Below are positions 15,646 to 60,692 of a stretch of 64,000 nt of DNA, one piece after another. The position numbers were made by a program, and so were the translations under genes. Below the pieces are notes generated by a model. The model did not search any database. It had not been told where the DNA came from and saw nothing but the letters and a program-made list of their open reading frames with translations. The first letter of the stretch is position 1. Each line of letters begins with the position of its first letter. Origin of the DNA: a virus (taxonomy: Duplodnaviria > Caudoviricetes); the IMG/VR virus record IMGVR_UViG_3300032285_001531; one strand, given 5' to 3'.

Positions 15646-16842
15646 ATGGAAGAAGAAAACAAACTAAATCACTGCAGTTTTTGCGGAACTAATAAAGAAT
15701 TTGTTAAGAAGCTTATAGTAGGGGACGGAGTAGCAATTTGTAGCGACTGCGTTGAATTATGTGATGACCTGATTATGGATGATTTTAAGATAGAATCTCC
15801 TAAATCAGAACCCAACTATGATCCTGACAAAATCAAAGCTTATTTGGATGAACACGTAATAGGTCAAGATAGTGCTAAGATTGTACTAAGTGTAGCAATC
15901 AGCAATCATTATAAACGTATTACTCACCCACCTAAAGACCTTGAGATTCAAAAGGGTAATGTACTAATCGTTGGACCTACAGGTTCAGGTAAAACATTGC
16001 TTGCCAAAACAGTTGCAAAATATCTTAAGGTTCCCTTCATTGTTGCTGATGCTACTAGCCTAACTGAAGCTGGTTATGTTGGTGATGATGTAGAGTCAAT
16101 GATTACTATGCTTGTTAATGCTGCAGGAGGTGATGTAGCTTTAGCTGAACAGGGTATTATATTTGTTGATGAAATAGATAAAATCGCACGTAAAGGCGAA
16201 AGTACAAGTATTACCCGTGATGTAAGTGGTGAAGGTGTACAGCAAGCATTATTAAAGCTAGTTGAAGGTACGACTTGCAGAGTATCATCACAAGGTGGCA
16301 GAAAGCATCCGGGCAATGATATGAATGAAATAAACACTAAGAACATATTATTCATTGCAGGAGGAGCCTTTGTTGGTCTGAAAGACGTTATAGCTACACG
16401 TGAAAATGGAACTAGTATTGGATTTAGTGCAAGCATCAAAGATACAAAAATTGAGGGTGATTTAAGTAAAGTTACTCCGGACGATTTAACAAAGTATGGA
16501 ATGATTCCTGAGTTTATTGGACGTTTTACAACTACAGTCAGTATTAGCGAACTGAACAAAGAACAGTTAATTAAGGTTCTTAAGGATGTGAAAAATAACT
16601 ATATCAGTCAGTATAAATATCTATTCAGTTTAGACAAGATAGAACTAAGTTTTACAGACGAAGCTTTAGAACAGATAGCAGAGAATACATTAACGCTAAA
16701 AACTGGGGCTAGAGGCTTACATACTGAGATTGAGCGTGTATTAATGACACACATGTACAATGTGGGCAGATACAAAGAAAATAATATAAAAACGCTAAAT
16801 ATTACTAAGGATGATGTTTTAGAACCTAAATCAATATTATGA
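15646..16842 (+). CDS. clpX: ATP-dependent Clp protease ATP-binding subunit ClpX
   Basis: C4 zinc domain CSFC...CSDC, GPTGSGKT, FVDEIDK, DVSGEGVQQALLK, IGF loop, TGARGL. Confidence 0.95.
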   Translation: MEEENKLNHCSFCGTNKEFVKKLIVGDGVAICSDCVELCDDLIMDDFKIESPKSEPNYDPDKIKAYLDEHVIGQDSAKIVLSVAISNHYKRITHPPKDLEIQKGNVLIVGPTGSGKTLLAKTVAKYLKVPFIVADATSLTEAGYVGDDVESMITMLVNAAGGDVALAEQGIIFVDEIDKIARKGESTSITRDVSGEGVQQALLKLVEGTTCRVSSQGGRKHPGNDMNEINTKNILFIAGGAFVGLKDVIATRENGTSIGFSASIKDTKIEGDLSKVTPDDLTKYGMIPEFIGRFTTTVSISELNKEQLIKVLKDVKNNYISQYKYLFSLDKIELSFTDEALEQIAENTLTLKTGARGLHTEIERVLMTHMYNVGRYKENNIKTLNITKDDVLEPKSIL

Positions 16843-17054
16843 GTGGAAAAAAAGTAATCGTACATGACGGCAATGTTGAGAAAGCATTGCGTAAATTCAA
16901 AAAGAAAGTTGCAGAATCTGGTATTCTGCAAGAAGTACGTGAGCGCCAAGAATATGTCAAACCCAACATCAAACGCAAAGTAGCCAAAAGTCTTGCAAAA
17001 AGACGCTGGAAGAAATTCCTAAAAGATCAAACTCTCCCCAAAAAATTATATTAA
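16839..17054 (+). CDS. rpsU: 30S ribosomal protein bS21
   Basis: VEKALRKFKKKV..SGIL.EVRERQEYVKP..KRK. Confidence 0.9.
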   Translation: MSGKKVIVHDGNVEKALRKFKKKVAESGILQEVRERQEYVKPNIKRKVAKSLAKRRWKKFLKDQTLPKKLY

Positions 17055-17091
17055 CCTAAATAATTTACTTTTTTACGCAAAAAGTATACAC

Positions 17092-17161
17092 TAAATATAC
17101 AAGTAGATGCCGAAGTCGGGTCTACTTAATGTCATAACTTGCTTATTGAAAGGAGATAAAA
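17092..17161 (+). promoter_or_regulatory. late promoter plus ROSE-like RNA thermometer leader of hsp20
   Basis: TAAATA 17092-17097, hairpin 17101-17127, CTTGCTT (17138-17144) able to pair with AAGGAG SD. Confidence 0.65.
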
Positions 17162-17608
17162 ATGACAAATTCAACACTAACCCTTCGTGCCCGCGATATT
17201 CCCGCAATTCATAGATTTGGTATCGGTTTCGATACTATGATAGATGAACTACTACGACTATCCTCGGTACAACAAAGTAATTACCCTCCGTATAACCTTC
17301 TAAAAATAGATGAGGACGTTTTCAATATTGAAATCGCCGTTGCTGGATTCAAAGAAGGCGAAATTGAGGTTACCATAGAAAAAAATGTATTGACCGTTAA
17401 GGGTGCTAAAAAAGACGGCATTCCAGAAAACATCGAATACGTACATCATGGCATCAGTACACGTAATTTTGAGCGCACTTTCCCATTAGCTGAACATATT
17501 GAAGTTAAGGGTGCTATCATACGTGACGGTATGCTAGTTATTGATTTGGTCCGTATCATCCCAGAAGATGAGAAGCCCAAATCTATTGCTATTTCTTACG
17601 TAAAGTAA
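17162..17608 (+). CDS. ibpA: small heat-shock protein Hsp20 (IbpA-like)
   Basis: NYPPYNL, IEIAVAGF, HHGISTRNFERTFPLAEH, DGMLVIDL. Confidence 0.93.
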   Translation: MTNSTLTLRARDIPAIHRFGIGFDTMIDELLRLSSVQQSNYPPYNLLKIDEDVFNIEIAVAGFKEGEIEVTIEKNVLTVKGAKKDGIPENIEYVHHGISTRNFERTFPLAEHIEVKGAIIRDGMLVIDLVRIIPEDEKPKSIAISYVK

Positions 17609-17667
17609 TAAACTAAATAAAAGTGTGCAGTAATTCTGCTGCACACTTTACTCATATAAGGTAAAAG

Positions 17668-17973
17668 ATGGCAAATTCAGATACAAAACTAAAAATTAAA
17701 CCGAACTTTAAGATTCCGGAACCTCCTATGTACAAAATCATTTATATGAATGATGACCATACAAGCATGGACTTTGTAGTTAGCAGCCTAATTGAACATT
17801 TTAATTATAATGCAGATACCGCTGTCAATATTACACAGAATATTCATGTTGAAGGATCAGCTACAGTAGCAGTGTTACCTTATGAGATAGCCGAACAAAA
17901 GGGTATTGAAGTAACTGTAGATGCAAGATCACAGGGATTTCCGTTACAGGTTAAAATAGAACAAGAAGGTTAA
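17668..17973 (+). CDS. clpS: ATP-dependent Clp protease adaptor ClpS
   Basis: PPMYKIIYMNDDHTSMDFV, IHVEGSA, YEIAEQK, GFPLQ. Confidence 0.9.
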   Translation: MANSDTKLKIKPNFKIPEPPMYKIIYMNDDHTSMDFVVSSLIEHFNYNADTAVNITQNIHVEGSATVAVLPYEIAEQKGIEVTVDARSQGFPLQVKIEQEG

Positions 17974-18656
17974 ATTTCTATACGTTTAGCCCAATAGGGC
18001 TTGCTTACACAAGGGTTAGACACAAATCTTATTCCACTAAGTGTTGTGTCTATCATCTTATCAGTTGCACCAAAAATCCAATTCTTAACTTTCTTTTCGG
18101 TATCTGCTGTTAAAACCATAGTTGGACAAATGTCATCCGATAATCTGTTAGTATCCCCAAAAAATAGTTTTGTGTCGGGTATACAATTACTAACTACCAC
18201 AATATCCTTAACATCCATATGTAATTGCAATTTTTTGACGGTATTATAAAGATATACTATATCTTCTCTACGATATGATTCTGCTAGTAGGTCCTGCTCT
18301 AAATCAATGATAGGATAATTACCATACCATCCGTTTATTGCGATTAGTGCTACCCCATTTAAAACTACTACGTTATTGTGCAAAAACACTGTATTGTTTG
18401 TGCTGTCACACATCTTTCCTATTTCTTCTACTCTATCTTGTTGAAGCATAAGATCAAAATGTTCTAATCCACCATCGATGTAAAAAACACCTTGATAGAA
18501 TGTAGATAGATAGGTTAGTGTGCGTTGTATTGTTTTTAAATCATGGGACAGATTCCCTGCAACAATGCAGAATAAACTAGTTACTTTATCAGTCCAATCA
18601 AACTTATCCTCAGGATAAAGATCCAAGTCACTGATTATGTCAAAACTAATGCTCAT
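17970..18656 (-). CDS. degenerate calcineurin-like metallophosphoesterase
   Basis: fold motifs present but metal ligands altered (SDLDL, AGNL, DGGLEH, SNCIP, IFGA). Confidence 0.6.
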   Translation of the reverse strand: MSISFDIISDLDLYPEDKFDWTDKVTSLFCIVAGNLSHDLKTIQRTLTYLSTFYQGVFYIDGGLEHFDLMLQQDRVEEIGKMCDSTNNTVFLHNNVVVLNGVALIAINGWYGNYPIIDLEQDLLAESYRREDIVYLYNTVKKLQLHMDVKDIVVVSNCIPDTKLFFGDTNRLSDDICPTMVLTADTEKKVKNWIFGATDKMIDTTLSGIRFVSNPCVSKPYWAKRIEI

Positions 18657-18694
18657 ATAGTATTTATATGGTATCGGGACTTTCGTCCCGACTA

Positions 18695-18928
18695 TTATTT
18701 TTCTTTTTTAGCTTTAGGTTTTTTAGCAGCAGGTGTTTTTGCTGTTTTTGGCTTAGCTGTTTTTTTAGCCTTCTTTTCTACTTTAACTGGTTCTTCTACT
18801 TTTAAAGTAAGGGTGGGTGTCATATCTACTGCATCTATTACAGGTTCTTGCGGGCGACTAGTAGGAAATGGCCAAGGTTCCTGTTTTTTTGGTTCTAACC
18901 TAAATAGTTTTTTAACAAAGTCTAACAT
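18695..18928 (-). CDS. small protein with Lys/Ala-rich tail
   Basis: AAGGAG RBS; WPFP motif; KKAKKTAKPK tail. Confidence 0.65.
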   Translation of the reverse strand: MLDFVKKLFRLEPKKQEPWPFPTSRPQEPVIDAVDMTPTLTLKVEEPVKVEKKAKKTAKPKTAKTPAAKKPKAKKEK

Positions 18929-19058
18929 ATGAATCTCCTTTATAGTATTTAGAGCCAAATCAAATAAAATATTAATTTAAGCAATATTACCTAAATACTT
19001 TAATAGCTGATATCAATTTGCTATAGTGACTTACTTTCTAATTTTATAAAGGAATCAA

Positions 19059-26452: not shown

Positions 26453-26767
26453 TTAAGTTTTAGGTCCTGCAGATTGTTCTATAACTTCAACACCAGTACC
26501 TACTCCAAGGATACATGAAGTATCACCGTAAGTATCTATTACTGTAAATGTTTTGGTTTCAGGATTTCCCCAAAAGGATATCATATGTTGACTTGATCCT
26601 AATCCTTTTCCCACTACTATTGGTACCTCAACATATTCTTTTTTTAATGTCTGCACTATAACTGCAGTATCATCACATATTACTTCAAACGGTACAGAAT
26701 GTTGCTCTGCATTACTTAGAGTTGGTGCGATACACAGTATCCCAATCAGAAGGTAAATTTTGTTCAC
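26453..26767 (-). CDS. secreted hypothetical protein
   Basis: GTG start with GGAGA RBS; signal peptide; Cys pair. Confidence 0.65.
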   Translation of the reverse strand: MNKIYLLIGILCIAPTLSNAEQHSVPFEVICDDTAVIVQTLKKEYVEVPIVVGKGLGSSQHMISFWGNPETKTFTVIDTYGDTSCILGVGTGVEVIEQSAGPKT

Positions 26768-28766
26768 GTAGTTCTCCTATTCTTTCTATCATCATATGAT
26801 AGTATTTGTCCATCTCTGAATCAAATTCCCCATGAAGTTGGTTCAGTAGTTCTAATGCTTCATCCCACTTTTGCTTGCGGTAGTGATCCAGCATCAGGTC
26901 ATGTTCTACACGTGATACTAAATATTCTGCCATTGAGTTTGCATCTGTTTTTAATACTGTAAAGATTCTAACACCTTCAGTCTTACCTTTTACTGCTATA
27001 ATATCTAATTCTAATGTGAAGTAATCATCACTTATCTGTTCTGCTGTCTTAGGTCCTAATACAATCTTGACACCATAAGGCTTAGACTGTCCTTCCAAAC
27101 GTGAAGCAAGATTGACACCATCACCAAGGCAAGTATAGTCAAAACGTTGACTAGACCCCATATTTCCCACAACAACAGTATCGGTATTGATTCCCAGACC
27201 CATACCAAAAGCTGGCACACCTTCTTTCGTAATTTCTTCATTGAACTCAGTTAAACTTTCCATCATCTCTAATGCCGTTTTAACAGCATCTTTTGCATGA
27301 TTGCTATTACCTACTGGAGCATTCCAGAAAGCCATTTGTGCATCGCCAATATACTTGTCTAATGTACCTTTGTTTTCTAGTATCTTTTTTGTCATAGCAG
27401 TCATGTACCTATTCATGATCTTTGTAAGACCCTGAACGTCTTTGCCATAATGTTCACTGATTGTTGTAAAGCCACGAACATCAGTAAACATAATAGACAA
27501 TTCTTGGCTTTCTCCACCTAACTTAAGTAGATCGGGTTGTCGTTGCAATTGTGCAACTAAGTCTGGTGATAAGTATGTACCAAACTGTTTCTTAATTTGT
27601 TGTTTTTGTAAAAATTCACTTATGAACTTAATGCCATAGCAATGTAGCATAACCAACACACTACTAACAATAAGCGCAGTGGCATCGACAAGCCATTTGT
27701 ACTTGGTAAAAGTATAAAAACTACCGGGCACAACGCTGCCAATAATAATGACAGATATAATAATTCCAGCATATGTCCACCTTGATATAAAAATAATTAT
27801 TAGACCTACTAGTATCAAGCCTAATATCTCAGCACCGTCTATCCAATCAGGACGTTCGATGTTAACTCCATTAATCATTGTGCCAATTACTGCTGCTTGT
27901 ACATCTTGTGGATATACTGCACCACGTGCTGTTGGTACTGGATTAGCTATACCTGCTGCACTTGTTCCTACGATTACTATTGCACCACCAAAGTCTGCGG
28001 GTAAGTCAACTGCACTTACACTCTTATTACTTTGACTCCAATCAATCCATATACGACCTAATGGATCAGTGCTGATTGGTCCGAACTGAGGTATACGCAT
28101 TTTCTCTACACCTAGTTCATTTAATTTAATTTGAAAACTTGGATCACCTGCAGCAACACGTAATGTTTCTAATGCTATTGAAGGATATAGTAAATCATTT
28201 ACACTTACTACTAAAGGTAATCTACGATTAACACCATCAATCTCAGGCATTACATTTGCAATACCAACACCTGCAGCATTTTCTTCTAATGGGCTTACGT
28301 TAGCAATTAATCCAGGATACACTACAATTCTATCAACAAATTCAGGACGCATAATACTTACACCAACTTGTTTAGGTGTATTCTTACTACGTGCTGAAGG
28401 TGTGTTACTTAATACTACAGGATGAGTTGCTAATGATTCTGCTAGTGCTTCATCTTGTCCGTTACGATCGGCTTCAGGCATTAATATATTCCACACTACA
28501 AGCCCCGCATGACGTTTATATAATTCATCAATTAGATTAGCATATTCATTTCTGGGTAAAGGCCATTGTCCATACTTATCTAGTGTAGCCTCATCTATGT
28601 TTACGGTGTAGATGTTGTTTTGTGTTATAGGTTGACTGATTATTACAGTATCAAAATATCGTAGACGAATTGATTCCACAAATGCAGGATCTGCAATGCG
28701 CAATAATGCTAACAATGCTAGTGTTATTAGTGAAGTCCAAGGGCTTAATAATATTTTCTTAATCAT
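26712..28766 (-). CDS. CHASE2-domain class III adenylate/guanylate cyclase
   Basis: IDEATLDKYGQWPLPR, D.DG..RRLPL, 3 TM, FTDVRGFT, DKYIGDA, GNMGS..RFDYTCLGDGVNLASRLEG. Confidence 0.93.
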   Translation of the reverse strand: MIKKILLSPWTSLITLALLALLRIADPAFVESIRLRYFDTVIISQPITQNNIYTVNIDEATLDKYGQWPLPRNEYANLIDELYKRHAGLVVWNILMPEADRNGQDEALAESLATHPVVLSNTPSARSKNTPKQVGVSIMRPEFVDRIVVYPGLIANVSPLEENAAGVGIANVMPEIDGVNRRLPLVVSVNDLLYPSIALETLRVAAGDPSFQIKLNELGVEKMRIPQFGPISTDPLGRIWIDWSQSNKSVSAVDLPADFGGAIVIVGTSAAGIANPVPTARGAVYPQDVQAAVIGTMINGVNIERPDWIDGAEILGLILVGLIIIFISRWTYAGIIISVIIIGSVVPGSFYTFTKYKWLVDATALIVSSVLVMLHCYGIKFISEFLQKQQIKKQFGTYLSPDLVAQLQRQPDLLKLGGESQELSIMFTDVRGFTTISEHYGKDVQGLTKIMNRYMTAMTKKILENKGTLDKYIGDAQMAFWNAPVGNSNHAKDAVKTALEMMESLTEFNEEITKEGVPAFGMGLGINTDTVVVGNMGSSQRFDYTCLGDGVNLASRLEGQSKPYGVKIVLGPKTAEQISDDYFTLELDIIAVKGKTEGVRIFTVLKTDANSMAEYLVSRVEHDLMLDHYRKQKWDEALELLNQLHGEFDSEMDKYYHMMIERIGELREQNLPSDWDTVYRTNSK

Positions 28767-28802
28767 CTATCTACCTTATAGTTTGTAATAGTATTTAGAC
28801 AC

Positions 28803-28841
28803 AAAAAAATAGCAGTCTAACTAGATATAATTAGACCGCTA
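28803..28841 (-). terminator. intrinsic terminator between csg-like operon and cyclase
   Basis: TAGC-GTCTAA / TTAGAC-GCTA stem with T7 tract on minus strand. Confidence 0.6.
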
Positions 28842-28864
28842 CCAAAAACTACCGTACTACTTTA

Positions 28865-29008
28865 TTATTGTTGTTCTACTTCCCGCTTCCATTTTTCATG
28901 ATTTTGGATAACTAGTTCTATTAGTTCTATACGGTGTCTAAGTCTTAGATGGATATCCTGCACAGTATAACCATGTTCAATCATACGTAGAATTAATTCA
29001 ATGTTCAT
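28865..29008 (-). CDS. small helical protein (47 aa, HTH-like)
   Basis: not in ORF track; MNIELILRMIEHGYTVQDIHLRLRHRIELIELVI. Confidence 0.5.
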   Translation of the reverse strand: MNIELILRMIEHGYTVQDIHLRLRHRIELIELVIQNHEKWKREVEQQ

Positions 29009-29017
29009 TCTTATAGT

Positions 29018-29611
29018 CTAATGTTTAATATAACTATACATGCCGCACGTGCCTGGGGCACAGTTAATCATAATACTTGCTTGGTCTACTGTAGTTGGAT
29101 TATCCTGTACTACATTGACTGTTGCATTTGTTGCACCGTGTAGATAAACTTTAAACCATTTATCTGATCCTACATCACCGCTTTGGGTAGATGTTATAGT
29201 GTTACCATTATTTACATTATTACCATCAACAATTAAAGTATGAGATCCTGAACCTGTTTGTCCTATAGTAATACTGTTACCATTACCTTGTAAATTCTGT
29301 ATGTTAGCTATGTGATTACCTGAACCACTTTGATTAATGTCTATTGTGTTATTAATTCCGGCTTTAACTTCAACGGTTGCTGTTTTAGCAGCACCTTGTT
29401 GAGTTATTGTAAACACAGAATAATCTACATCACTAATACTGCCTGTGTTTATAGTGGCGGTGTGTCCTAACCCTGTTTGTTCAATAGTAACTGTATTGCC
29501 AGTACCAATTTGATCTACACTAATTGTATTGTCTGCACTCCATGCATAACCCACCACTAATAGTAGTAAAACTAAAACAAAATATAATATAGTAGCTAGT
29601 CTAAAGTTCAT
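29018..29611 (-). CDS. curlin-like repeat protein (CsgA/CsgB-like)
   Basis: signal peptide; repeats N-T-x-x-I-x-Q-x-G-x-G. Confidence 0.75.
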   Translation of the reverse strand: MNFRLATILYFVLVLLLLVVGYAWSADNTISVDQIGTGNTVTIEQTGLGHTATINTGSISDVDYSVFTITQQGAAKTATVEVKAGINNTIDINQSGSGNHIANIQNLQGNGNSITIGQTGSGSHTLIVDGNNVNNGNTITSTQSGDVGSDKWFKVYLHGATNATVNVVQDNPTTVDQASIMINCAPGTCGMYSYIKH

Positions 29612-29612
29612 C

Positions 29613-30722
29613 TTAATGTTGTGTAATTGTTATATTGCTTGTGCCACCTGCATTGACACGATTCTTAAATTCCATACGTTCTTGATTAATAGTAATAGTC
29701 ACATCTCTAGTTTGTCTTACTGTAGCACATGCAATGTTACTGCCATTATCTTCACGACATAATTGCACAATTGGATCTTCAATGACTGCTACTACACCAG
29801 TTAATGCTACATAATCAGGTAACAGTCTAGCATTAGCATTCTCTAAATAATCCATCTGCGCTTTAAGCATAGCATTAATTAAATCAAGTATATTAACTAG
29901 AAAATCTCTTTCTAAAAAATTAACATCTAATTTACTATACTTGAATGGATCTTGTGTTGCTAATACATTATCTAGTCCTTCATATTTTAAATAATCAACG
30001 TCTAGAAAACCTTTTTTAGTATCACCACGTGCTTCATTGTTGTTCTCAGATTTAACTGGAGTCATAATCAATAAATTATTCATTTGGTCTTCATCCAGTT
30101 TTAATATAACTGGCTTCATAGGTTTTGTTTCACGTGTTTGTACTACAGTAGCCTGAAAAGGTTGATTCATTATCACAACACCTTCATCACTTGTTACACT
30201 AATCTCACCTGTCTTACAATCTGTTTTAACATCACGCCAGCCTACTGGACAACTAGGCAACAACACAATAGTACTACGACCAAGTTCATCTACTGCTGCG
30301 GTGAAGTCTGTACCACGAACACCAATTGTGGCTGATGGAGTATTAACTGCTACTGATTGTGGATTGTTCTTTGCTATTTGACCTGATGCGTAACGTACGG
30401 TACCTAATGCTATATTAACAGCAAGTTTTCCACCTGTCTTGCTGTTAGGATCATAAACAAAATCATCTATAACTAGTTTACTATTCTCCGTTACCTGTAC
30501 CTTTGTGTTGTCTGCGAACGTGAGTCCCACTTTTCCCTGTTGGGTTCTTACCGTATCTAACATCTCCAGTCCAGTCCCTTTGGACCCCGTCAACGTCTGC
30601 TTCTGTCGTAGTATCGAAGGCGGAGTCTGAACTTGTTCCGTTATCGTCCCTATTGCTGCGTTTACGTTCATTGGCGATATGCTCAGCAATAGTAAGGATA
30701 TTCTTAGGTACCATGTTTTCAT
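29613..30722 (-). CDS. FecR-domain secreted protein
   Basis: signal peptide; FADNTKVQVTENSKLVIDDFVYD, GTVRYASG, TPSATIGVRGTDF. Confidence 0.85.
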   Translation of the reverse strand: MKTWYLRISLLLLSISPMNVNAAIGTITEQVQTPPSILRQKQTLTGSKGTGLEMLDTVRTQQGKVGLTFADNTKVQVTENSKLVIDDFVYDPNSKTGGKLAVNIALGTVRYASGQIAKNNPQSVAVNTPSATIGVRGTDFTAAVDELGRSTIVLLPSCPVGWRDVKTDCKTGEISVTSDEGVVIMNQPFQATVVQTRETKPMKPVILKLDEDQMNNLLIMTPVKSENNNEARGDTKKGFLDVDYLKYEGLDNVLATQDPFKYSKLDVNFLERDFLVNILDLINAMLKAQMDYLENANARLLPDYVALTGVVAVIEDPIVQLCREDNGSNIACATVRQTRDVTITINQERMEFKNRVNAGGTSNITITQH

Positions 30723-30732
30723 CTCCTTCCCC

Positions 30733-31512
30733 TTATTGGGCAGTTTGTGTTATTGTAAATGAATTAGTACTTCCTGAACTTTGTAAATTAAATGTGTTAT
30801 CACCTGCAGTACCTGATTGAGTTACTGATAATGTATTGCCACTACCTGTAACTGCTAATGTAGCACTATGTCCTAGTACTGCACCACCAGTTTGATTAAT
30901 AGACACATTATTATTAGCACCCGCTATAACCATAGTAGCAGTAGCATTAATACCTACACTAGGAGCTAATGTAATATTACCTGTGTTACCGCCACCGCCT
31001 GTGATACCAATGCTAGGATGTAATCCATCACCAATGATGTTAAAGTTCATTGCATTGTTATTACCACCTGCACTGTTACCAGTAACTACATTGTTTTCAC
31101 CGCTAATTGAAACGTTAGCCTGTGAATTATTACCTACTTGTGTAATACCAATATTGTTACGATTACATTTTCCTGTTTCAGCGTCATTACAATTTATAAG
31201 TGCAATGCCATTGTTACCTGAAACACTGTAGCTGAACACGTTTGTTGAACCTAATGATCCGCCGTTAATACCTAATGTTAAACGATTGTTGATACCTGTT
31301 TGTGTGATTGTTACTGCAGTATCATCACCATATATTTTAGCATTAGCATCTTGTGCTATTCCTATACCCTTAACGGTGTTGCTCGATCCGTCTTGAGTTA
31401 TAGTAATAGTGCTACGATCACCAATTTGATCCAAATAAACTTTGTTGTCCCCTGATATAGCAACACTGGCTAAAGTTAATAACGCCATCATTACTACTAT
31501 TTTTGTTTTCAT
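30733..31512 (-). CDS. curlin-like repeat protein (CsgA/CsgB-like)
   Basis: signal peptide; many x-I-T-Q-x-G-x-x-N repeats. Confidence 0.75.
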   Translation of the reverse strand: MKTKIVVMMALLTLASVAISGDNKVYLDQIGDRSTITITQDGSSNTVKGIGIAQDANAKIYGDDTAVTITQTGINNRLTLGINGGSLGSTNVFSYSVSGNNGIALINCNDAETGKCNRNNIGITQVGNNSQANVSISGENNVVTGNSAGGNNNAMNFNIIGDGLHPSIGITGGGGNTGNITLAPSVGINATATMVIAGANNNVSINQTGGAVLGHSATLAVTGSGNTLSVTQSGTAGDNTFNLQSSGSTNSFTITQTAQ

Positions 31513-31528
31513 GATTTTTCACGAGTCC

Positions 31529-32671
31529 TTACTTTTTCTTTTTTTTATTGTGCAGGTTCTTAATGACCTGTTTTTTATTGCTAATTTTTCTAGCATGTTT
31601 TTCTTCTTGTTTCATCTTAATAGTAGGCTTACTCATCTTTATAGGTATCATCACTAATACTTTACTTTTTTGAGCAAACCTATTATCATTTGATTCTTTT
31701 GTTTCACTGTGTGTGTCAACTTCTTGTACTTTTGGCTCTTCGGATTTAACTTCTTCCTTAGGCTCTTCTTTTGGTTCTTCTTTTACTTCTACCTTAGGTT
31801 CTTCTTTCTTTACATCTTCTTTTTTTGTTTCCACCTTAGGTTCTTGCTTTGAAGCGGGTATAATTATTACGCCAGGTTTAGTATCTTCAATTGCCCAGAT
31901 ACCTTTACGTGCACCTTCTTTAATCAATTCAAGCACTGCTGCTTCAATTGCACTCTTAACTGCAAATGTCCCTGGCTCATTTACAGTTAACCCTGCTTCA
32001 AATTCAAACGCTTTGGTGCCCACGTCAAAGAACTTCATTGCTGCTACTGAGTCACCTGCACTAACAATTGTTTTCTGCATTGTTACTGCTGCTAATACTT
32101 CACCTGTGCTTACACTGATAGCACGGATACTCACAGTAACAATATCTTCACTATATTGTGTTTGAGGTCCTATGCCTAACCAACGTGCTGCCATACCGCC
32201 TGACTTAGTTGAACTATCATATCCAACTATGCCACCTTCTAATAATATACCGGCGAACATCATAGGTGGCAAAGGCTTAGCATTTGATCCTTCATATGCT
32301 TCACGCATTTGACGAATCAATTGTCGTTCACGTGTTAAGCCATCTATGCCTACACGTTCAACTACTTTGAACCACTTACCTTGTCCTACATCTTGCAATG
32401 CTTTAATCAAAAACATTTCACCGCCTTGTGTTACTGCAGTGCTTAAACTTGCTACGTTTTGTTGTGGTCTACGCTGACCTGTTTTATCTGTAAATCCATA
32501 CAGTGCTACTGTAATAGGTTGTCCACCTGCAGGACCCGGAATCTTATCAAATTCTTTTTGCATCATTACTGGCATATTAACAGGTTTAGGAGCTGACCCC
32601 ATACGCTCGTTTTGCGATACTGCACATCCTGATAATAAACTTAGTAATAATAATATTTTTATTGTTCTCAT
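31529..32671 (-). CDS. csgG: curli secretion channel CsgG with charged C-terminal extension
   Basis: lipobox LSGC; DKTGQRRP, STAVTQG, WF.VVER, ERQLIR, LEGGIVGYD. Confidence 0.9.
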   Translation of the reverse strand: MRTIKILLLLSLLSGCAVSQNERMGSAPKPVNMPVMMQKEFDKIPGPAGGQPITVALYGFTDKTGQRRPQQNVASLSTAVTQGGEMFLIKALQDVGQGKWFKVVERVGIDGLTRERQLIRQMREAYEGSNAKPLPPMMFAGILLEGGIVGYDSSTKSGGMAARWLGIGPQTQYSEDIVTVSIRAISVSTGEVLAAVTMQKTIVSAGDSVAAMKFFDVGTKAFEFEAGLTVNEPGTFAVKSAIEAAVLELIKEGARKGIWAIEDTKPGVIIIPASKQEPKVETKKEDVKKEEPKVEVKEEPKEEPKEEVKSEEPKVQEVDTHSETKESNDNRFAQKSKVLVMIPIKMSKPTIKMKQEEKHARKISNKKQVIKNLHNKKKKK

Positions 32672-33126
32672 TATTGAAATTGAAATTGTCCTAATGGTAC
32701 TGTAATCTGTGTGGTGTTCCCTACTAAATCTGTTACTGTCAAATATACGTTGCTAGAATCTTTCGTCCATGAAATATTATTCCCCTCAAAGTTCAGTGTA
32801 CCACTATTACTACCACCATTAGCAAACATAGCAGTTGCTAAGTTTTGACTGATTTGTGCATAGATTCGTGATTCTAAGTTATTAAGGAATTTCTGTAGAT
32901 TTGTGTTTTTGGCATCTGCTGCAGCCTTATCTATTGCTGACTGTATATCTTTCCTCAATTGTTCTTTTCTAGTATGTTCCTGATTCTCTATAGTAAGTAC
33001 GTGGCTGCTGTATCCAATACCATTAAAGGATGGACTTTTAAAACTATAATCGGGTAAAGGCGCAGCATAAACTACGCTGGTTAGTGCAGTTAGAACAGCC
33101 ACCTTTATTATTTTTTTGACTACCAT
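32671..33126 (-). CDS. csgF: curli assembly protein CsgF
   Basis: signal peptide; YSFKSPSFNG, LTIENQE, FLNNLESRIYAQISQ; adjacent to csgG. Confidence 0.8.
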   Translation of the reverse strand: MVVKKIIKVAVLTALTSVVYAAPLPDYSFKSPSFNGIGYSSHVLTIENQEHTRKEQLRKDIQSAIDKAAADAKNTNLQKFLNNLESRIYAQISQNLATAMFANGGSNSGTLNFEGNNISWTKDSSNVYLTVTDLVGNTTQITVPLGQFQFQ

Positions 33127-33220
33127 TGGTACAATCTTTCCAGATAAATACTACTATAATAAGACTATTTAGTTGACTTAGATCAAAAAAATAGCGTAAT
33201 ACTTTACAGGGAGCATAAAT

Positions 33221-33499
33221 ATGGACTTTTTCAAATTAGTCGCCGAAGTGGGGTTTCCCATTGCCGGTGCATGTGCCGCAGGGTATTTCGTGTTTTTGAC
33301 ATTGAAGTTTATCTTGGCTGGTGTAACAGGTAGTGTTATGGGTATCAAGGGCATTATTATGGCCCTAGATAATCGTGTTAAAACCATGAACCATGATGTA
33401 GTAAGAATTGACGTAACAGTAAGTAATGCATTAGGACTCAGACCAGACGTAGACCGTATTGCGAGAGCAGACGGAAAAAACGATGCAAGGAGAGACTAA
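33221..33499 (+). CDS. small membrane protein (YvrJ/holin-like)
   Basis: VGFPIAG...GYF single TM then coiled coil. Confidence 0.6.
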   Translation: MDFFKLVAEVGFPIAGACAAGYFVFLTLKFILAGVTGSVMGIKGIIMALDNRVKTMNHDVVRIDVTVSNALGLRPDVDRIARADGKNDARRD

Positions 33500-33681: not shown

Positions 33682-33908
33682 GTGCCCATATTTTATCTAA
33701 AGGATCAGTTGTGCTATTTCATGATTACACTTGGAATCTAGATGAAAACGGAATTAAACTAGATAGTGAATTAGAAGTAGAACAACTGGGCTGGCAGGTA
33801 GGAGACTACTTTAAGTTTGTAGAAGAAAATGGTGTACGTAGATTAGTAAAAATAGATGTGTTAGAGAAGTTTATAATAAAAGGAGCAGATAATGAAACAA
33901 ATGATTGA
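33678..33908 (+). CDS. hypothetical phage protein
   Basis: 76 aa, coupled. Confidence 0.65.
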   Translation: MSAHILSKGSVVLFHDYTWNLDENGIKLDSELEVEQLGWQVGDYFKFVEENGVRRLVKIDVLEKFIIKGADNETND

Positions 33909-34443
33909 TAAAGCAACAGGAAAAGTATTGACAAGAAGTGAAGCCGAAGCTAAAATTAAAGATAAAGCAGGATGGGTTATCACAGTTGTTGCTGCACTAT
34001 TAGCAGTTAATGCTTACTTAGGCAATAGTAATAGTAGTAAAATATTAAACAATACAATTGAAGCAAACGATACTTGGGGTTTCTATCAAGCAAAAAGTAT
34101 TAAGCAAAGTATTGCTGAAGGGCAACTTGATGATGCATTGTCACGTAAGGATGCAGCAAAGGTTGAGAAGCTAAGAGCAAAGATTGCAAGATACGAAAGT
34201 GATCCTGAAAAAGGTGAGGGTAAAAAAGAGTTAATGGCTAAGGCTCAGAAACTAGCAGCAGATAGAGCAGAAGCTAAAAAACGTAGTCCGTGGTATACAT
34301 TTGCCGGTACTGCATTTCAGTTAGCAATTGTGTTATTATCAGCAAGTATATTAGCAGTGAGTATGACTATGTTCTGGGCCAGCTTGTGGGTTGGCGGTAT
34401 TGGTGCTATACTAATGGCACAAGCTATTTGGATGATAGTATAA
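33892..34443 (+). CDS. DUF4337-family membrane protein
   Basis: TVVAALLAVN...ANDTWGFYQAKSIKQ...FQLAIVLLSASIL. Confidence 0.75.
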   Translation: MKQMIDKATGKVLTRSEAEAKIKDKAGWVITVVAALLAVNAYLGNSNSSKILNNTIEANDTWGFYQAKSIKQSIAEGQLDDALSRKDAAKVEKLRAKIARYESDPEKGEGKKELMAKAQKLAADRAEAKKRSPWYTFAGTAFQLAIVLLSASILAVSMTMFWASLWVGGIGAILMAQAIWMIV

Positions 34444-34793
34444 TGGATGGCATAGCTGATTTAATTAACAAATATGGTTTTCCCATAGTTGCTGCAGGCG
34501 GAACCGGTTACATGATATACTATGTTTGGGAATGGGCGACTAAGGATATTAAGCCTGTTCTCAGTGAAGCGAATACTACATTGATTGCATTAATCGACCG
34601 TATTCGTATGCTAGATAATGACTTAATAAGATTGCAACAAAAAGTTAACACTACACTTCATTTACGTGGTAAGATTATTGAAAGTGAACGTGTTATGGAA
34701 GCACATAAAGTTGATGTTGAGGCAGAAAAGAAATTTAGACAGGCAGTAGAAGAAGAACCGCATCCTCATCATAAGAAAGAGGAACCAAAATGA
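34443..34793 (+). CDS. small membrane protein (YvrJ/holin-like), paralogue of 33221
   Basis: LINKYGFPIVAAGGTGY...LIDRIRMLDNDLIRL. Confidence 0.6.
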   Translation: MDGIADLINKYGFPIVAAGGTGYMIYYVWEWATKDIKPVLSEANTTLIALIDRIRMLDNDLIRLQQKVNTTLHLRGKIIESERVMEAHKVDVEAEKKFRQAVEEEPHPHHKKEEPK

Positions 34794-35511: not shown

Positions 35512-36480
35512 ATGGAACACGATTTTTTCAAAAAATACATTGATATCATCAATGAGGCACAAGCTCCGGCGCCAGGCGCAATGCGCCCTACAACAGCACA
35601 AACATTAGCAGCTACTAGAGCGGCTAGTAATGCATCAGCTGGAGGTAACGTTCCACCAAACTCTCCAAAACAGATGCCGTACATGGCGCCGCAAAAGCAA
35701 GTTGGAGAACCGCAAAGAGTAGCACCCACAGCAAGTTTAGGTGGAATGTCACAATCAGCGGACGCAAAAACAGGTGATATTACTACTGCATTTAACGCAG
35801 GTGATGTGGGTGTATCATCAACAAAAACTCCCGGCGGATATGTAAAAGCAAAATCAATGGATTATCAAATGGGTGATGTTGGTGTTGCTCAATCTCAAAA
35901 TGCACCTAATTATGCTCAGGGACAAATTGCTGCACCTACTACAACTACTGCAACAACAGGTAGTGGAGCACAAGGAACAGCCGTAAGTGGTGTTGGCTTT
36001 GGTGGTGCGAGCGGTAGCAATGTTGGTAACAATACAGTTACTTCAGGTGATCAAGAACTAGCTGGTATAGCAAAAGGAATGACCCCTCAGCCAGGTCAAC
36101 AAACTGTGCAAGAAGAAGAAGAACCAGAATCAGTACGAGATTTACTAAAGAAATTACTTGACATCGTAAGAGACCACGAAGGTCCTAAAAAAGATTCTGA
36201 AAAAGAAGTAGACGAAGCTAAAAAAGATGATGGTAAGGATCAAAAGAATACAAGTACTACTAAAGATAATCCTTCTCAGAATCCAACAAAGACTGATATT
36301 CCAAAACGTGAGACACCAAAGAACACTTCTACTGTGATTGGAAAAGAAGATGACAAAGAAGAAGATGAAGAAAAAGTCACAGAAGATGAAAACCTATATC
36401 AGCGTGAGTACCAAGTGGCTGAGGAAAAAATTGAAGAATCTCTCCGTAGTTTATTAAAGGCTATCAAAGAAGGTAAATGA
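35512..36480 (+). CDS. low-complexity protein, possible virion internal protein
   Basis: Gly/Ala/Thr-rich then D/E/K-rich; IDIINEA N-terminus. Confidence 0.65.
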   Translation: MEHDFFKKYIDIINEAQAPAPGAMRPTTAQTLAATRAASNASAGGNVPPNSPKQMPYMAPQKQVGEPQRVAPTASLGGMSQSADAKTGDITTAFNAGDVGVSSTKTPGGYVKAKSMDYQMGDVGVAQSQNAPNYAQGQIAAPTTTTATTGSGAQGTAVSGVGFGGASGSNVGNNTVTSGDQELAGIAKGMTPQPGQQTVQEEEEPESVRDLLKKLLDIVRDHEGPKKDSEKEVDEAKKDDGKDQKNTSTTKDNPSQNPTKTDIPKRETPKNTSTVIGKEDDKEEDEEKVTEDENLYQREYQVAEEKIEESLRSLLKAIKEGK

Positions 36481-37076
36481 GAGCAAGCGAGTTCATTACT
36501 GAAGATAGTAAGCCACAAATAGCATATGATGAATATGCTAGACAAATGGCTGAAAAGTATGGGATTCCACCTGGCATGGTTTTACATGCTATGAAGAAAG
36601 AAACAGGACACCTAGCTGATGATCCTGCAGCAAGAGCAACAGTTAGAGGTCCTAAAACTAAAAGTGGTGAACGTGCAGTAGGTGTTATGCAATTAATGCC
36701 TATAGCTGCAAAAGATGTAGGAGTTAAGGATCGTACTGATCCTTATGAAAATATACGAGGCGGTACAGAGTTGTTAGCCAAATACTACAATAGATATAGC
36801 AAAGATCCTACATTAGCATTAGCAGCATACAATGCAGGACCAACTGCTGTTGAAAAGTACGGCGGAATTCCACCATTCAAGCAAACCCAAAATTATGTAG
36901 CAGATTATGTACATGATGAAAGAACTATACCATCGGCACCGAAAGCTGATGATTCATGGACTAGTAAAATTTCAAATTATGTAAGTGATTTAGTATCTCC
37001 AAAACCATCAACCCCAGAACCAAAACCAGTTAAATCAAAGTCTGCTTATACTGACTTACCAACTTCTCAATATTAA
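36477..37076 (+). CDS. lytic transglycosylase (SLT domain)
   Basis: AMKKETG (catalytic Glu), GVMQLMP, NIRGG, LAAYNAGP. Confidence 0.9.
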   Translation: MRASEFITEDSKPQIAYDEYARQMAEKYGIPPGMVLHAMKKETGHLADDPAARATVRGPKTKSGERAVGVMQLMPIAAKDVGVKDRTDPYENIRGGTELLAKYYNRYSKDPTLALAAYNAGPTAVEKYGGIPPFKQTQNYVADYVHDERTIPSAPKADDSWTSKISNYVSDLVSPKPSTPEPKPVKSKSAYTDLPTSQY

Positions 37077-54954: not shown

Positions 54955-55113
54955 GATTTTCCTTTATAAGTTAAATAGGCTATATGGTGAAGCCAATTAC
55001 CCCCTTTAGTAATGCAGAAGGGACTGCAGGATACTGGAGCAACGGGTGTGATTTGAACACACGGTTTTACAGATTTGCAATCTGCTGCATTGGGCCGCTC
55101 TGCCACCGTTGCA

Positions 55114-55329
55114 TTAAAGCTTTTTGTATTCGTGTGGATACGTCAATACAAATAGAGTATAATCTTTATCATCTAAAAATTCAATGATTCTTTTACTATT
55201 ATCTACAAATTTGTAATTAATGATATTGTATTGTTTAGCCCAATTGCAAAATTTTTTATATCTATCATTTGCTTTATGAGGCATGCCTGCTAATGGGCCT
55301 GTTACTGAACATATTTCTACAAGTATCAT
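55114..55329 (-). CDS. small phage protein, F-x-L family
   Basis: ends IEFLDDKDYTLFVLTYP. Confidence 0.55.
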   Translation of the reverse strand: MILVEICSVTGPLAGMPHKANDRYKKFCNWAKQYNIINYKFVDNSKRIIEFLDDKDYTLFVLTYPHEYKKL

Positions 55330-55336
55330 AATTGTT

Positions 55337-55410
55337 TGGCTCCGGTTGAGGGAATCGAACCCCCACTAATGGTTTTGGAGACCATCGCACTGCCATTATA
55401 CTAAACCGGA
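55337..55410 (-). tRNA. tRNA-Trp(CCA)
   Basis: cloverleaf; ATGGT-CTCCAAA-ACCAT; GTTCGA; encoded CCA. Confidence 0.9.
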
Positions 55411-55415
55411 ATATG

Positions 55416-55616
55416 TTATCTTATTTTGTTTAGGTATTCTCTACCTATGTGACCTTCTTCGATTTCTCTTAATGCTGTTACTGTAGTTTTATCTTTAGTA
55501 ACAATTTTAGGTGCATGACCACTTTTCAATTCACGTGCCCTCACACTTGCAATTAAAATTAAATCATAAAGACCGCCTGCCGCCTTAGCAGCTAATTCAC
55601 TTGTTCTGCCTTTCAT
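55416..55616 (-). CDS. rpoZ: RNA polymerase omega subunit
   Basis: GLYDLILIASVRAREL...K..VTALREIEEG. Confidence 0.8.
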   Translation of the reverse strand: MKGRTSELAAKAAGGLYDLILIASVRARELKSGHAPKIVTKDKTTVTALREIEEGHIGREYLNKIR

Positions 55617-55636
55617 TGTATTCCCTTTATGTTTAG

Positions 55637-55708
55637 TGGGTGATTAGAGGGTCGAACTCCCGACATTCGCCGTGTAAAGGCGCTACTCTACCACTGAGTT
55701 AATCACCC
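55637..55708 (-). tRNA. tRNA-Val(TAC), CCA not encoded
   Basis: GGGTGAT/ATCACCC acceptor stem; loop TTTACAC; 3' end reads A-CTA. Confidence 0.85.
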
Positions 55709-55714
55709 AGTTGA

Positions 55715-55891
55715 CTACACTCTTTCAATACGAATTGACATTGATTCATCTAAATTTAAACTTGCAGGAATAAGTCCTGCTTCTTTATCAGCGAATACAA
55801 GGTCAGTAATTGCTTTAGGATTATAACTAGTTACATTTCCTAAATCAATCGTTTTGTATAATGTGTCGTTTATGTATACGTTTACTTTCAT
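55715..55891 (-). CDS. small hypothetical protein (58 aa)
   Basis: not in ORF track; MKVNVYINDTLYKTIDLG. Confidence 0.55.
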   Translation of the reverse strand: MKVNVYINDTLYKTIDLGNVTSYNPKAITDLVFADKEAGLIPASLNLDESMSIRIERV

Positions 55892-55907
55892 ACATCTATT
55901 TATTAAT

Positions 55908-55991
55908 TGGTGCGTAAGGAGAGACTCGAACTCTCAATCCTTTCGGCACTGGCTTCTAAGACCAGCGTGTATACCATTCCACCACTTACGC
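55908..55991 (-). tRNA. tRNA-Leu(TAG)
   Basis: CTGGT-CTTAGAA-GCCAG; long variable arm; CCA. Confidence 0.92.
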
Positions 55992-55998
55992 ATTAATA

Positions 55999-56082
55999 TG
56001 GTACGAGAAGAGGGACTTGAACCCTCAATCCTTTCGGCGCAAGATTTTAAGTCTTGTGTGTATACCATTCCACCATTCTCGC
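55999..56082 (-). tRNA. tRNA-Leu(TAA)
   Basis: CAAGA-CTTAAAA-TCTTG; long variable arm; CCA. Confidence 0.92.
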
Positions 56083-56087
56083 ATTAC

Positions 56088-56161
56088 TGGAGCGGAGTGA
56101 GAGAATCGAACTCTCAACTAGAGCTTGGAAGGCTTTCGTTTTACCATTAAACTAACCCCGC
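56088..56161 (-). tRNA. tRNA-Gly(TCC)
   Basis: loop CTTCCAA; discriminator T; CCA. Confidence 0.92.
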
Positions 56162-56171
56162 ATTTACTACT

Positions 56172-56238
<67 letters not shown>

Positions 56239-56248
<10 letters not shown>

Positions 56249-56478
56249 CAATCATCTTCTTCATCTACACCATTGATAAAATCTTGTAACTTCTGCTTTG
56301 CTTCTTTTCTGCTTAATGCAGGTAGTGTAACAGTAGCAATACAATTTTTAATCTTTATATCAAACGGTACAACACCATGCGGCAGCCAGCCTTCTTCAAC
56401 CGGTACACTTACTGTGTACGATTTAAGTTTCATTATCCTATCAAGTATCTGTTTAGTAATATCCGCTGGATGTGGCAT
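56239..56478 (-). CDS. hypothetical phage protein
   Basis: 79 aa; last 10 nt overlap tRNA-Ile2. Confidence 0.6.
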
Positions 56479-56488
56479 AGTTGTTGAA

Positions 56489-56562
56489 TGGTGCCCCTTG
56501 ACAGAATCGAACTGCCAATTGATGATTACAAATCAACTGTTATACCATTTAACTAAAAGGGC
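56489..56562 (-). tRNA. tRNA-Thr(TGT)
   Basis: loop TTTGTAA; GCCCTTT acceptor; CCA. Confidence 0.9.
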
Positions 56563-56569
56563 GTTTTAA

Positions 56570-56731
56570 CTACTTAGTCTTACTTTCTATAGCACGTTTA
56601 ATTTTCATAACATGCTTAGGTCTTGCTGATTCTAAAAGTTTAGTTAACTGCTCTACGTTAAGAGGACCTAATCTAGTTTTGCCTGTCTTAGTTTTCATTG
56701 GATCACGTTTACTATCTTTTTTTACTGCCAT
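56570..56731 (-). CDS. small basic protein (53 aa)
   Basis: not in ORF track; GAGGA RBS; KTKTGKTRLGPLNVEQL. Confidence 0.6.
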   Translation of the reverse strand: MAVKKDSKRDPMKTKTGKTRLGPLNVEQLTKLLESARPKHVMKIKRAIESKTK

Positions 56732-56750
56732 ATTTTCCTCTTTATGTTAA

Positions 56751-56845
56751 TGGCGAAGAGTATTGGATTCGAACCAATGAAGCAGATTTGTGTCCGCTTG
56801 CCTTCTTAGCAGGAAGGTGCCTTCGACCAACTCGGCCAACTCTCC
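56751..56845 (-). tRNA. tRNA-Ser(GCT)
   Basis: CCTTC-CTGCTAA-GAAGG; long variable arm; GCCA end. Confidence 0.92.
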
Positions 56846-56855
56846 GATACAACCT

Positions 56856-57077
56856 TTACTGCTTGTCCTCGTACTTCTCATTCAACTTATCTACACCGTG
56901 TGAGAATCTAAAATAACTCACTAGCATACTGTACATTGCATAAACAAGAAGTGCTATAGCAATCCATGTTATAGCTACTGGATTAATATAATATAGTACT
57001 GCATAACCACCTACTATCATAGCTAACAATGCAAGTATTGCCTTTACTTCTGGTTTCAAACTATTAAATTTGTTCAT
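56856..57077 (-). CDS. small membrane protein
   Basis: two TM; AAGGA RBS. Confidence 0.65.
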   Translation of the reverse strand: MNKFNSLKPEVKAILALLAMIVGGYAVLYYINPVAITWIAIALLVYAMYSMLVSYFRFSHGVDKLNEKYEDKQ

Positions 57078-57142
57078 ACATAGTCCTTTATAACGGTTTA
57101 AGAGATTTAATTATATAATAAGTGCAGAGTAATGTCAAACAC

Positions 57143-58306: not shown

Positions 58307-58322
58307 TATATCACTCGTTGTT

Positions 58323-58410
58323 TGGCGGAAGCGGTGAGATTCGAACTCACGGACCCTTTCGAGCCTCTAGCTTTCAAGGCTAGTGTAATCGGCCACTCTA
58401 CCACACTTCC
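58323..58410 (-). tRNA. tRNA-Ser(TGA)
   Basis: CTAGC-CTTGAAA-GCTAG; long variable arm; GCCA end. Confidence 0.92.
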
Positions 58411-58650: not shown

Positions 58651-58695
58651 TGTTAAGGTATAATTGAAGCGGGTGATAATCACCCGCTTTGATGC

Positions 58696-60660: not shown

Positions 60661-60692
60661 CATGGGAAAATGTAAAATATCAATATATTTGG

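Follow-up and report, generated by a model that had tools for sequence, protein, structure and literature searches.

A viral type VIII secretion module with FecR-domain and CHASE2 adenylate cyclase genes in a T4-like phage

Introduction

Genes of the curli type have been described in several groups of phages. In 2020 csgF and csgG were reported in pelagimyophages (PMC7029224). In 2022 the CsgGF pore of phage Melnitz was modelled and a role in lysis was proposed for it, with csgA and csgB stated to be missing (PMC9004378). In another study of the same year, CsgF, CsgG, CsgA/B, FecR, a second CsgA/B and an adenylate cyclase were described, following a gene called 'histidine kinase', in podo- and myophages; the global distribution and expression of this viral type VIII secretion system (T8SS) module were shown, an alphaproteobacterial origin was derived, and the cyclase was found not to be always present (PMC9599517). 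None of the three papers mentions CHASE2 or periplasmic extensions of CsgG. Here we describe a block of genes at 26.4-33.1 kb of a 64,000-nucleotide stretch of DNA (the window) from a Caudoviricetes virus (IMG/VR record IMGVR_UViG_3300032285_001531), which by its gene content is a new copy of the published module. A first-pass annotation of the window, made from the letters alone, had known of no experimental description of such a circuit. It is true that no experiment exists, but the gene set was published in 2022 as a conserved viral module (PMC9599517), and the composition of the circuit is thus not undescribed.

Taken as a whole, we think it rather probable that the block is a viral T8SS module with a FecR-domain protein and an adenylate cyclase, which is expressed late, exports fibres and turns an envelope signal into cyclic AMP (cAMP). 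Late in infection, T4-late-type TAAATA promoters would switch its units on. In a host without curli genes, CsgG and CsgF would make up a channel through the outer membrane, and this channel would export the curlin-repeat proteins to give surface fibres. The FecR-domain protein would be a periplasmic accessory or a cargo of the secretion system, evolving in step with CsgF and CsgG, and the CHASE2 domain may in addition sense it; the cyclase would turn the envelope signal into cAMP that acts on a host receptor. The phage might benefit through aggregation or 'sibling capture', through shielding from superinfection, or through the timing of lysis.

Organisation of the locus

The block forms a minus-strand island with plus-strand genes on both flanks, and GC skew flips across it. 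Read 5' to 3' on the minus strand, the order is csgF, csgG, curlin 1, FecR, curlin 2, a 47-codon open reading frame (ORF), a hairpin, a CTAAATA motif, the cyclase and an ORF of 104 amino acids. The genes csgF, csgG, both curlins, FecR and the cyclase all score above the Pfam gathering thresholds and lie at the places on the minus strand where the first-pass annotation had put them. The annotation had also called a terminator, a TAAATA promoter and a secreted protein after the cyclase: a hairpin with 16 pairs and a T-run was found at 28843-28808, the hexamer occupies exactly positions 28792-28797 of the minus strand, and the 104-residue ORF (26453-26767) has a signal-peptide-like N-terminus. 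The features of the locus and of its plus-strand border are as follows.

33166-33172, minus strand: CTAAATA, T4-late-promoter-like, about 40 nucleotides upstream of csgF (motif scan)
32671-33126, minus strand: csgF, T8SS accessory protein with signal peptide (PF10614 E 2.4e-13; phrog_35372 E 3.5e-66)
31529-32671, minus strand: csgG, outer-membrane lipoprotein channel with a K/E-rich C-terminal tail of 115 amino acids (PF03783 E 2.1e-46)
30733-31512, minus strand: curlin-repeat protein 1, 259 amino acids, signal peptide (PF07012 33.9 bits, cut-off 20.7)
29613-30722, minus strand: secreted FecR-domain protein, 369 amino acids, signal peptide (PF04773 E 1e-10)
29018-29611, minus strand: curlin-repeat protein 2, 197 amino acids, signal peptide (PF07012 43 bits, cut-off 20.7)
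28865-29008, minus strand: 47-codon ORF, lineage-specific (gene call in source assemblies)
28808-28843, minus strand: intrinsic-terminator-like hairpin closing the csgF operon (16-pair stem, 4-nucleotide loop, T-run)
28792-28798, minus strand: CTAAATA, late-promoter-like, 26-32 nucleotides upstream of the cyclase start (motif scan)
26712-28766, minus strand: CHASE2 receptor adenylate cyclase, 684 amino acids (PF05226 E 2e-40; PF00211 E 8.5e-22)
26453-26767, minus strand: small secreted protein, 104 amino acids, two conserved cysteines (phrog_25396 E 1.1e-5)
33221-33499, plus strand: p92 (phrog_18771), small membrane protein transcribed divergently from csgF (PHROG E 3.8e-34)
33892-34443, plus strand: DUF4337 membrane protein, between p92 and p116 (PF14235 E 6.9e-30)
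34443-34793, plus strand: p116, p92 paralogue (phrog_18771), one transmembrane segment and a helical tail (PHROG E 2.6e-29)

The genes csgF and csgG have one base in common, and the organisation, as read from the sequence, is that of a tightly packed operon from csgF to curlin 2, a predicted terminator, and a cyclase unit with a putative promoter of its own. Signal-peptide-like N-termini were found on six proteins, namely CsgF, the lipoprotein CsgG, curlins 1 and 2, the FecR-domain protein and the 104-residue protein. Most of the module genes are members of phage-only PHROG families that have no assigned function, and a megablast search of the region against 50,697 phage records gave no match, the relatives being recognisable at the protein level only.

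Among these relatives, TAAATA lies within 80 nucleotides upstream of 73% of the p92 genes, 51% of the csgF genes and 31% of the cyclase genes, and of none (0%) of the csgG and p116 genes, against a background of 3.5%. This promoter-like enrichment upstream of the module units agrees with the promoter that the first-pass annotation had proposed, and it supports three transcription units (p92, csgF and cyclase) under putative T4-late-like promoters. In the window the minus strand holds three CTAAATA sites, two of which stand before csgF and the cyclase. The plus strand holds 13, clustered in intergenic stretches at about 17-19 kb (16795-18991) and about 2-3 kb (1905-2896), and CTAAATA may be a promoter motif that the phage uses generally.

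Conservation of the module

IMG/VR was sampled from both ends of the module, with a cyclase probe and a FecR probe. The cyclase probe matched more than 586 contigs; in the best 80 loci, which were examined, csgF, csgG and FecR lay within 9 kb of the cyclase in 64, the remaining loci being mostly incomplete at their ends. Of the 77 loci sampled by FecR, 76 hold csgG. Flanking sequence sufficed to look for the cyclase in 42 of them; it was there in 39, and three FecR loci had no cyclase within 10 kb. One locus that appeared to hold the cyclase only (L079) carries the csg-FecR block on the same contig about 12 kb away. The csg block is inverted in eight loci with its linkage to the cyclase kept, and in ten loci the FecR stop codon overlaps or abuts the cyclase start. 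The first-pass annotation had asked for such a synteny survey, and had held that an inactive cyclase, or one not conserved together with the csg genes, would speak against its reading; the two were found to be co-conserved from either end, inversions included, and the catalytic residues of the cyclase are intact.

Pairwise distances between homologues were compared in 62 loci, a test that is confounded by gene order and recombination. The distances fall into three blocks, made up of p92/p116, of csgF, csgG and FecR, and of the CHASE2, transmembrane and catalytic parts of the cyclase. FecR distances follow those of CsgF and CsgG closely (r 0.82-0.87), and p92/p116 are correlated with the csg genes at r 0.28-0.51.

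Some of the matched contigs were labelled as bacterial. Six metagenome-assembled genome (MAG) contigs found by the FecR probe, together with L091 and L092, assigned to several phyla, were considered as cellular copies and set aside, since their non-cassette flanks are shared with IMG/VR phage loci and they are therefore mis-binned phage DNA. In a Caulobacteraceae MAG (L093:3998-11090; CANGEH010000001.1) a full csgF-csgG-curlin-FecR-CHASE2-cyclase cassette lies among cellular-type genes. Its cyclase is 45% identical to that of the window; its flanks hold glycosyltransferases, an S9 peptidase and a TonB-dependent receptor, none of them common to the phage loci, and no p92/p116; and GC content falls from about 65% to about 53% at the upstream edge of the cassette. 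Directly after the cyclase stands a gene for a PycTM-type membrane effector (PF18967, E 8.8e-25), an arrangement which, by analogy, hints that cyclase-to-membrane-effector wiring may exist in the family.

The curli-type secretion genes

Three components of a curli or T8SS system are present in the block, namely the CsgG lipoprotein channel, CsgF and secreted curlin-repeat subunits, the last being putative amyloid formers. CsgF matches PF10614 with 50.8 bits (cut-off 25.8) over profile positions 13-132 of 132; a plain sequence search of solved structures gave no match to it. CsgG has the lipobox LLSGC and aligns with Escherichia coli CsgG (3x2r) over residues 3-263 (E 2.4e-46), and its residues 265-380 form a low-complexity tail rich in K and E. 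In several relatives CsgG ends, after a linker, in a bacterial SH3 domain (PF08239/PF06347, with E values as low as 2.8e-10; L006:3081-4205, L071:14226-15260, L049:15170-16249 and L044:2173-3270). The curlin-repeat proteins match the CsgA and CsgB families of NCBIfam weakly, far under the equivalog cut-offs. A curlin-repeat gene accompanies the csg operon in 67 of 82 loci and in 73 of 77 of the FecR-sampled set, curlin 2 being detected in part of the relatives only. No CsgD was found among the window genes.

The FecR-domain protein

The AlphaFold2 model of the FecR-domain protein (predicted local distance difference test score 76) consists of a signal peptide, a FecR/PupR-type beta-sandwich, a disordered linker, a helix and a small C-terminal beta domain. 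In a structure search the sandwich matched the PupR CCSSD (6ovk_R) with a Z score of 15.1 and a root-mean-square deviation of 2.6 over 136 residues, and no structural match was found for the small C-terminal domain. PF04773 is the sole Pfam match of the protein, which has neither a cytoplasmic anti-sigma N-domain nor a transmembrane anchor. Its cleavable signal peptide runs straight into the sandwich, and because this peptide stands where the anti-sigma domain would be, a role as a FecR-type anti-sigma or iron regulator is unlikely. The comparative data narrow the hypotheses in the same direction, FecR appearing to belong with the pore and not with iron regulation.

The C-terminus has two strands of the 'ITI.Q' type and was considered as a curlin repeat. 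A hidden Markov model of 40 FecR C-termini gave no significant curlin among 7,093 locus ORFs (best E 4.7), and the Pfam Curlin_rpt model did not match even at E up to 10. A match of the model to the 'cell surface anchoring domain' of 5ix9 maps to the N-terminal sandwich (21-117, Z 6.7) and not to the C-terminal domain, and was not used.

The CHASE2 adenylate cyclase

By hydropathy the cyclase has an N-terminal transmembrane segment at about residues 12-30, a periplasmic CHASE2 domain (PF05226, residues 15-323), a hydrophobic block at about 307-385, the catalytic domain and a helical tail. Alignment to CyaB (3r5g) and Cya2 (2w01) gives D429 and D475 as metal ligands, K471 and T545 as substrate residues, and N552 and R556 as transition-state residues; across 37 homologues no substitution occurs at D429, K471, D475 or R556, and conservation at T545 and N552 is 90% or higher. 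The catalytic aspartates seen in the first pass are thus kept along with four further catalytic residues. Since the solved guanylate cyclase Cya2 has Glu at the position of K471, where the Lys/Thr pair stands here, the enzyme reads as a class IIIb adenylate cyclase. The output, given earlier as cAMP or cGMP, would accordingly narrow to cAMP on the strength of this specificity pair. The cyclic-nucleotide-binding domain PF00027 is absent from three near-complete jumbo relatives and from Melnitz and HTVC008M, and because these five related phage genomes are without it the receptor of cAMP is probably a host protein. The best PADLOC match of the cyclase to PycC (E 1.3e-23) reflects the shared class III fold only, and membership in Pycsar was rejected; no PycTM-like gene was found in the window, p92, p116, the DUF4337 protein and the 104-residue protein having no PycTM match in PADLOC.

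The closest cellular cyclases are alphaproteobacterial, with 33-38% identity. In none of 77 such loci does csgG or csgF lie nearby; in 8, a gene with a FecR domain immediately precedes that of the cyclase. The pairing of FecR with CHASE2 in bacteria, which the first-pass annotation had given as established, does occur in some Alphaproteobacteria; from the literature it is known in Sinorhizobium meliloti, where cyaD1 is accompanied by SMc02177 (PMC5498481), and in Burkholderia, where a LysM-FecR protein goes with a CHASE2 kinase (PMC5192318). In Thalassospira the genes form a TPR/FecR/CHASE2-cyclase trio. In a Curvivirga sp. MAG (L097:2676-7877) a protein of 1733 amino acids, with a BapA prefix-like region, FecR and RTX repeats, is encoded immediately upstream of a CHASE2 adenylate cyclase, and suggests by analogy that a secreted adhesin read by a CHASE2 sensor can include a FecR domain.

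Bordering membrane proteins and small open reading frames

The bordering proteins p92 and p116 are the best-conserved part of the module, with up to 91% identity. Among the 50,697 phage records p92 was found in Melnitz and HTVC008M only, where the p92/p116 homologues lie directly upstream of csgF; in the related loci p92 borders the module in 70 of 83, and p116, next to p92, in 73 of 83, whatever the orientation. Both are small, with one or two hydrophobic segments and a charged tail, and share a GFPI...LDN motif. No Pfam family was found for p92, and neither protein has a HisKA or HATPase_c domain; p116 has a weak match to the holin family phrog_4898 (E 2.5e-4). From their position we infer that p92/p116 are probably the 'HK' (histidine kinase) of the published module (PMC9599517), a kinase domain being absent from both.

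A DUF4337 gene was found near the module in seven related IMG/VR loci, and in L003 directly upstream of the cyclase. At 36477-37076 on the plus strand, 3 kb from the module and on the same strand as p92, p116 and DUF4337, lies a gene for an SLT-domain transglycosylase (PF01464, E 1.1e-18) with endolysin-type PHROG matches. With p92/p116 and DUF4337 it may make up a lysis region, although in the related loci the SLT gene is not a constant neighbour of the module.

The 47-residue ORF had been called helix-turn-helix-like in the first pass. This label found no support, as there was no significant Pfam match (best E 0.061, no helix-turn-helix model) and no homologue in 82 related loci. The 104-residue ORF overlaps the end of the cyclase by 56 nucleotides. 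Homologues of its product occur in eight related loci, of which L003, L031, L041 and L053 keep the same overlap, and the protein is an accessory of some lineages. It was also considered as a chaperone of the CsgC/CsgH type, which found no support: its AlphaFold2 model (score 78) is alpha/beta and not an Ig-like sandwich, and no solved structure matched at E of 0.001 or below, the only matches being uncharacterised small secreted proteins in the AlphaFold database. Elsewhere in the window, 11 tRNA genes (Cys, Trp, Val, two Leu, Gly, Met, two Thr and two Ser) are clustered on the minus strand at 55035-60768.

Alternative explanations

Several points weigh against a late-expressed module that exports fibres and signals through cAMP. 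The fibres are predicted from the genes themselves, and late timing is read from a short motif. The constriction of E. coli CsgG (Y51/N55/F56) is Q/S/L here in the alignment to 3x2r, and because of these differences the properties of the channel may differ as well. No CsgE- or CsgC-type partner was found in the cassette by Pfam or NCBIfam, alphaproteobacterial curli systems being likewise without CsgE (PMC9599517), and clumping of Melnitz-infected cells was not seen by the Melnitz authors (PMC9004378). Finally, FecR distances follow those of CHASE2 at only r 0.38. A relay from FecR to CHASE2, as put forward in the first-pass annotation, is thereby left without direct support, FecR tracking CsgF and CsgG instead, which predicts these two as its stronger partners. 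Extending the proposal made for Melnitz, it might be argued that CsgG/CsgF serve as an outer-membrane pore in lysis, a pinholin- or secretin-like gate which works with holin-like p92/p116 and an endolysin and to which fibres are irrelevant. The architecture and weak holin match of p92/p116, their place at the border of the module in every arrangement, the SLT transglycosylase 3 kb away in the window, the late-promoter-like motifs, the altered constriction of CsgG and the lack of clumping in Melnitz infections would all fit such a device. Against this, curlin-repeat proteins with signal peptides are conserved in the operon, in the proportions given above, which implies a secreted substrate; a simple pore needs no CsgF, FecR or cyclase; the SLT gene is not a conserved neighbour; and p92/p116 evolve apart from the csg genes. 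We therefore hold a lysis device to be unlikely.

It is equally conceivable that two modules merely lie together, an alphaproteobacterial-type FecR-CHASE2-cyclase sensor acting on the host via cAMP, independently of a T8SS acquired alongside. The cyclase has a promoter-like motif of its own and a terminator between it and the csg operon, its CHASE2, transmembrane and catalytic parts are a separate evolutionary block, its closest cellular counterparts sit beside FecR in some loci and beside csgG or csgF in none, three FecR loci have no cyclase within reach, and the published module does not always include it (PMC9599517). Nevertheless, cyclase and csg genes stay linked in more than 90% of loci despite inversions and insertions, FecR tracks CsgF/CsgG and not CHASE2 and so is not simply the private partner of the cyclase, and the stop codon of FecR meets the cyclase start in the ten loci mentioned, which makes an independent sensor improbable. 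The idea that an ungated CsgG pore imports nutrients or siderophores, with 'FecR' as an iron-dicitrate-type regulator, was raised as an option in PMC9599517, and the Pfam domain name and the apparent lack of a CsgE gate speak for it. Yet the FecR protein is a signal peptide and a sandwich with no anti-sigma domain or membrane anchor, the conserved module contains no FecI-type sigma factor or TonB-dependent receptor, and bacterial adhesin-like proteins encoded beside CHASE2 cyclases contain this domain too, as in the 1733-residue BapA/RTX protein of Curvivirga. Of the rivals the iron role is the weakest, and we give it hardly any credence.

The whole block, from p92/p116 and the T8SS to FecR and the CHASE2 cyclase, could also be imagined as one late envelope-sensing circuit. 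In it the periplasmic parts would register either the state of the channel or fibre, or a signal from outside, for instance from a superinfecting phage or from cells close by, and pass it via cAMP to the timing of lysis through p92/p116. The sensing of superinfection or cell density suggested in the first pass is speculation, and we regard the complete circuit as a long shot; if true, it would amount to a functional analogue of the lysis inhibition known from T4, assembled out of parts of bacterial secretion and second-messenger systems.

Significance

Aquatic T4-like phages have few accessory gene blocks that are more widespread than this module, each of the two probes matching more than 560 IMG/VR contigs and the FecR component more than 7,000 protein clusters, and it also sits in jumbo phages. 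It is predicted to give hosts without curli genes a secretion machine and a second-messenger sensor. The candidate roles, which are aggregation, exclusion of competing phages and control of lysis, would each affect the way in which phages shape plankton populations. To the published picture we add the co-conservation of the genes from either end, TAAATA at three starts, the p92/p116 pair, the co-evolution of FecR with CsgF/CsgG, a FecR protein without the anti-sigma part, and curli-free FecR-CHASE2 pairs in Alphaproteobacteria. The comparative data suggest that two small membrane proteins stand behind the name 'histidine kinase', and the units carry late-type promoter motifs.

Comparison with known systems

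With the Pycsar systems (PycC with a PycTM or PycTIR effector) the window shares the catalytic fold, and the Caulobacteraceae cassette has its PycTM-type gene after the cyclase. Unlike Pycsar, the cyclase of the window is phage-borne and has a CHASE2 sensor, and its Lys/Thr pair points to ATP and not to pyrimidines. The curli of E. coli and Salmonella (csgBAC-csgDEFG) likewise have a CsgG lipoprotein channel, CsgF and secreted curlin-repeat proteins, whereas no CsgE, CsgC or CsgD was found in the module of the window, its subunits are under the CsgA/CsgB equivalog cut-offs, its constriction reads Q/S/L, and phage promoter-like motifs stand before its units.

The architecture of CHASE2, transmembrane block and class III cyclase is that of CyaD1, CyaD2 and CyaK of S. 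meliloti (PMC5498481, PMC7529298, PMC13001267). There a trans-envelope signal passes from the outer-membrane protein NsrA to a CHASE2 cyclase, a precedent for the signalling proposed here, and the FecR-domain protein SMc02177 is encoded next to cyaD1, although it is dispensable for signal perception. Loss of CHASE2 renders CyaD1 of S. meliloti constitutive. In contrast to the viral module, the alphaproteobacterial CHASE2-cyclase loci are without csgG/csgF (0/77), and their FecR partners are larger proteins, different outside the sandwich domain. In Burkholderia the BiofilmReg operon encodes a response regulator, a periplasmic LysM-FecR protein and a CHASE2 histidine kinase (PMC5192318). Here too a secreted FecR-domain protein is encoded beside a CHASE2 sensor, and the operon is linked to a surface or biofilm phenotype; unlike in the window, its output is a histidine kinase with a response regulator and not a cyclase, and it includes no T8SS.

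The closest likeness is to the described carriers of the viral module, Pelagibacter phage HTVC008M (gp014-gp019), the Methylophilales (OM43) phage Melnitz (genes 99-104, four isolates) and the HTVC023P-type podophages (PMC7029224, PMC9004378, PMC9599517). HTVC008M and Melnitz have the same order of two small ORFs, csgF, csgG, curlin, FecR, curlin and cyclase, with 39-45% identity between the proteins (53-64% for p92), and CsgE and CsgD, absent from the published modules, were not found in that of the window either. Unlike in those two phages, the module of the window is inverted with respect to both flanks, p92 and p116 are divergent and split by the DUF4337 gene, CsgG has its 115-residue K/E-rich tail, and there are two extra genes, the 47-codon ORF and the overlapping gene of the 104-residue secreted protein. 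Outside the module there is little in common between the window and the 140-kb pelagimyophages, and unlike these carriers it probably comes from an uncultured T4-like jumbo phage, consistent with the 328-344 kb of many related contigs.

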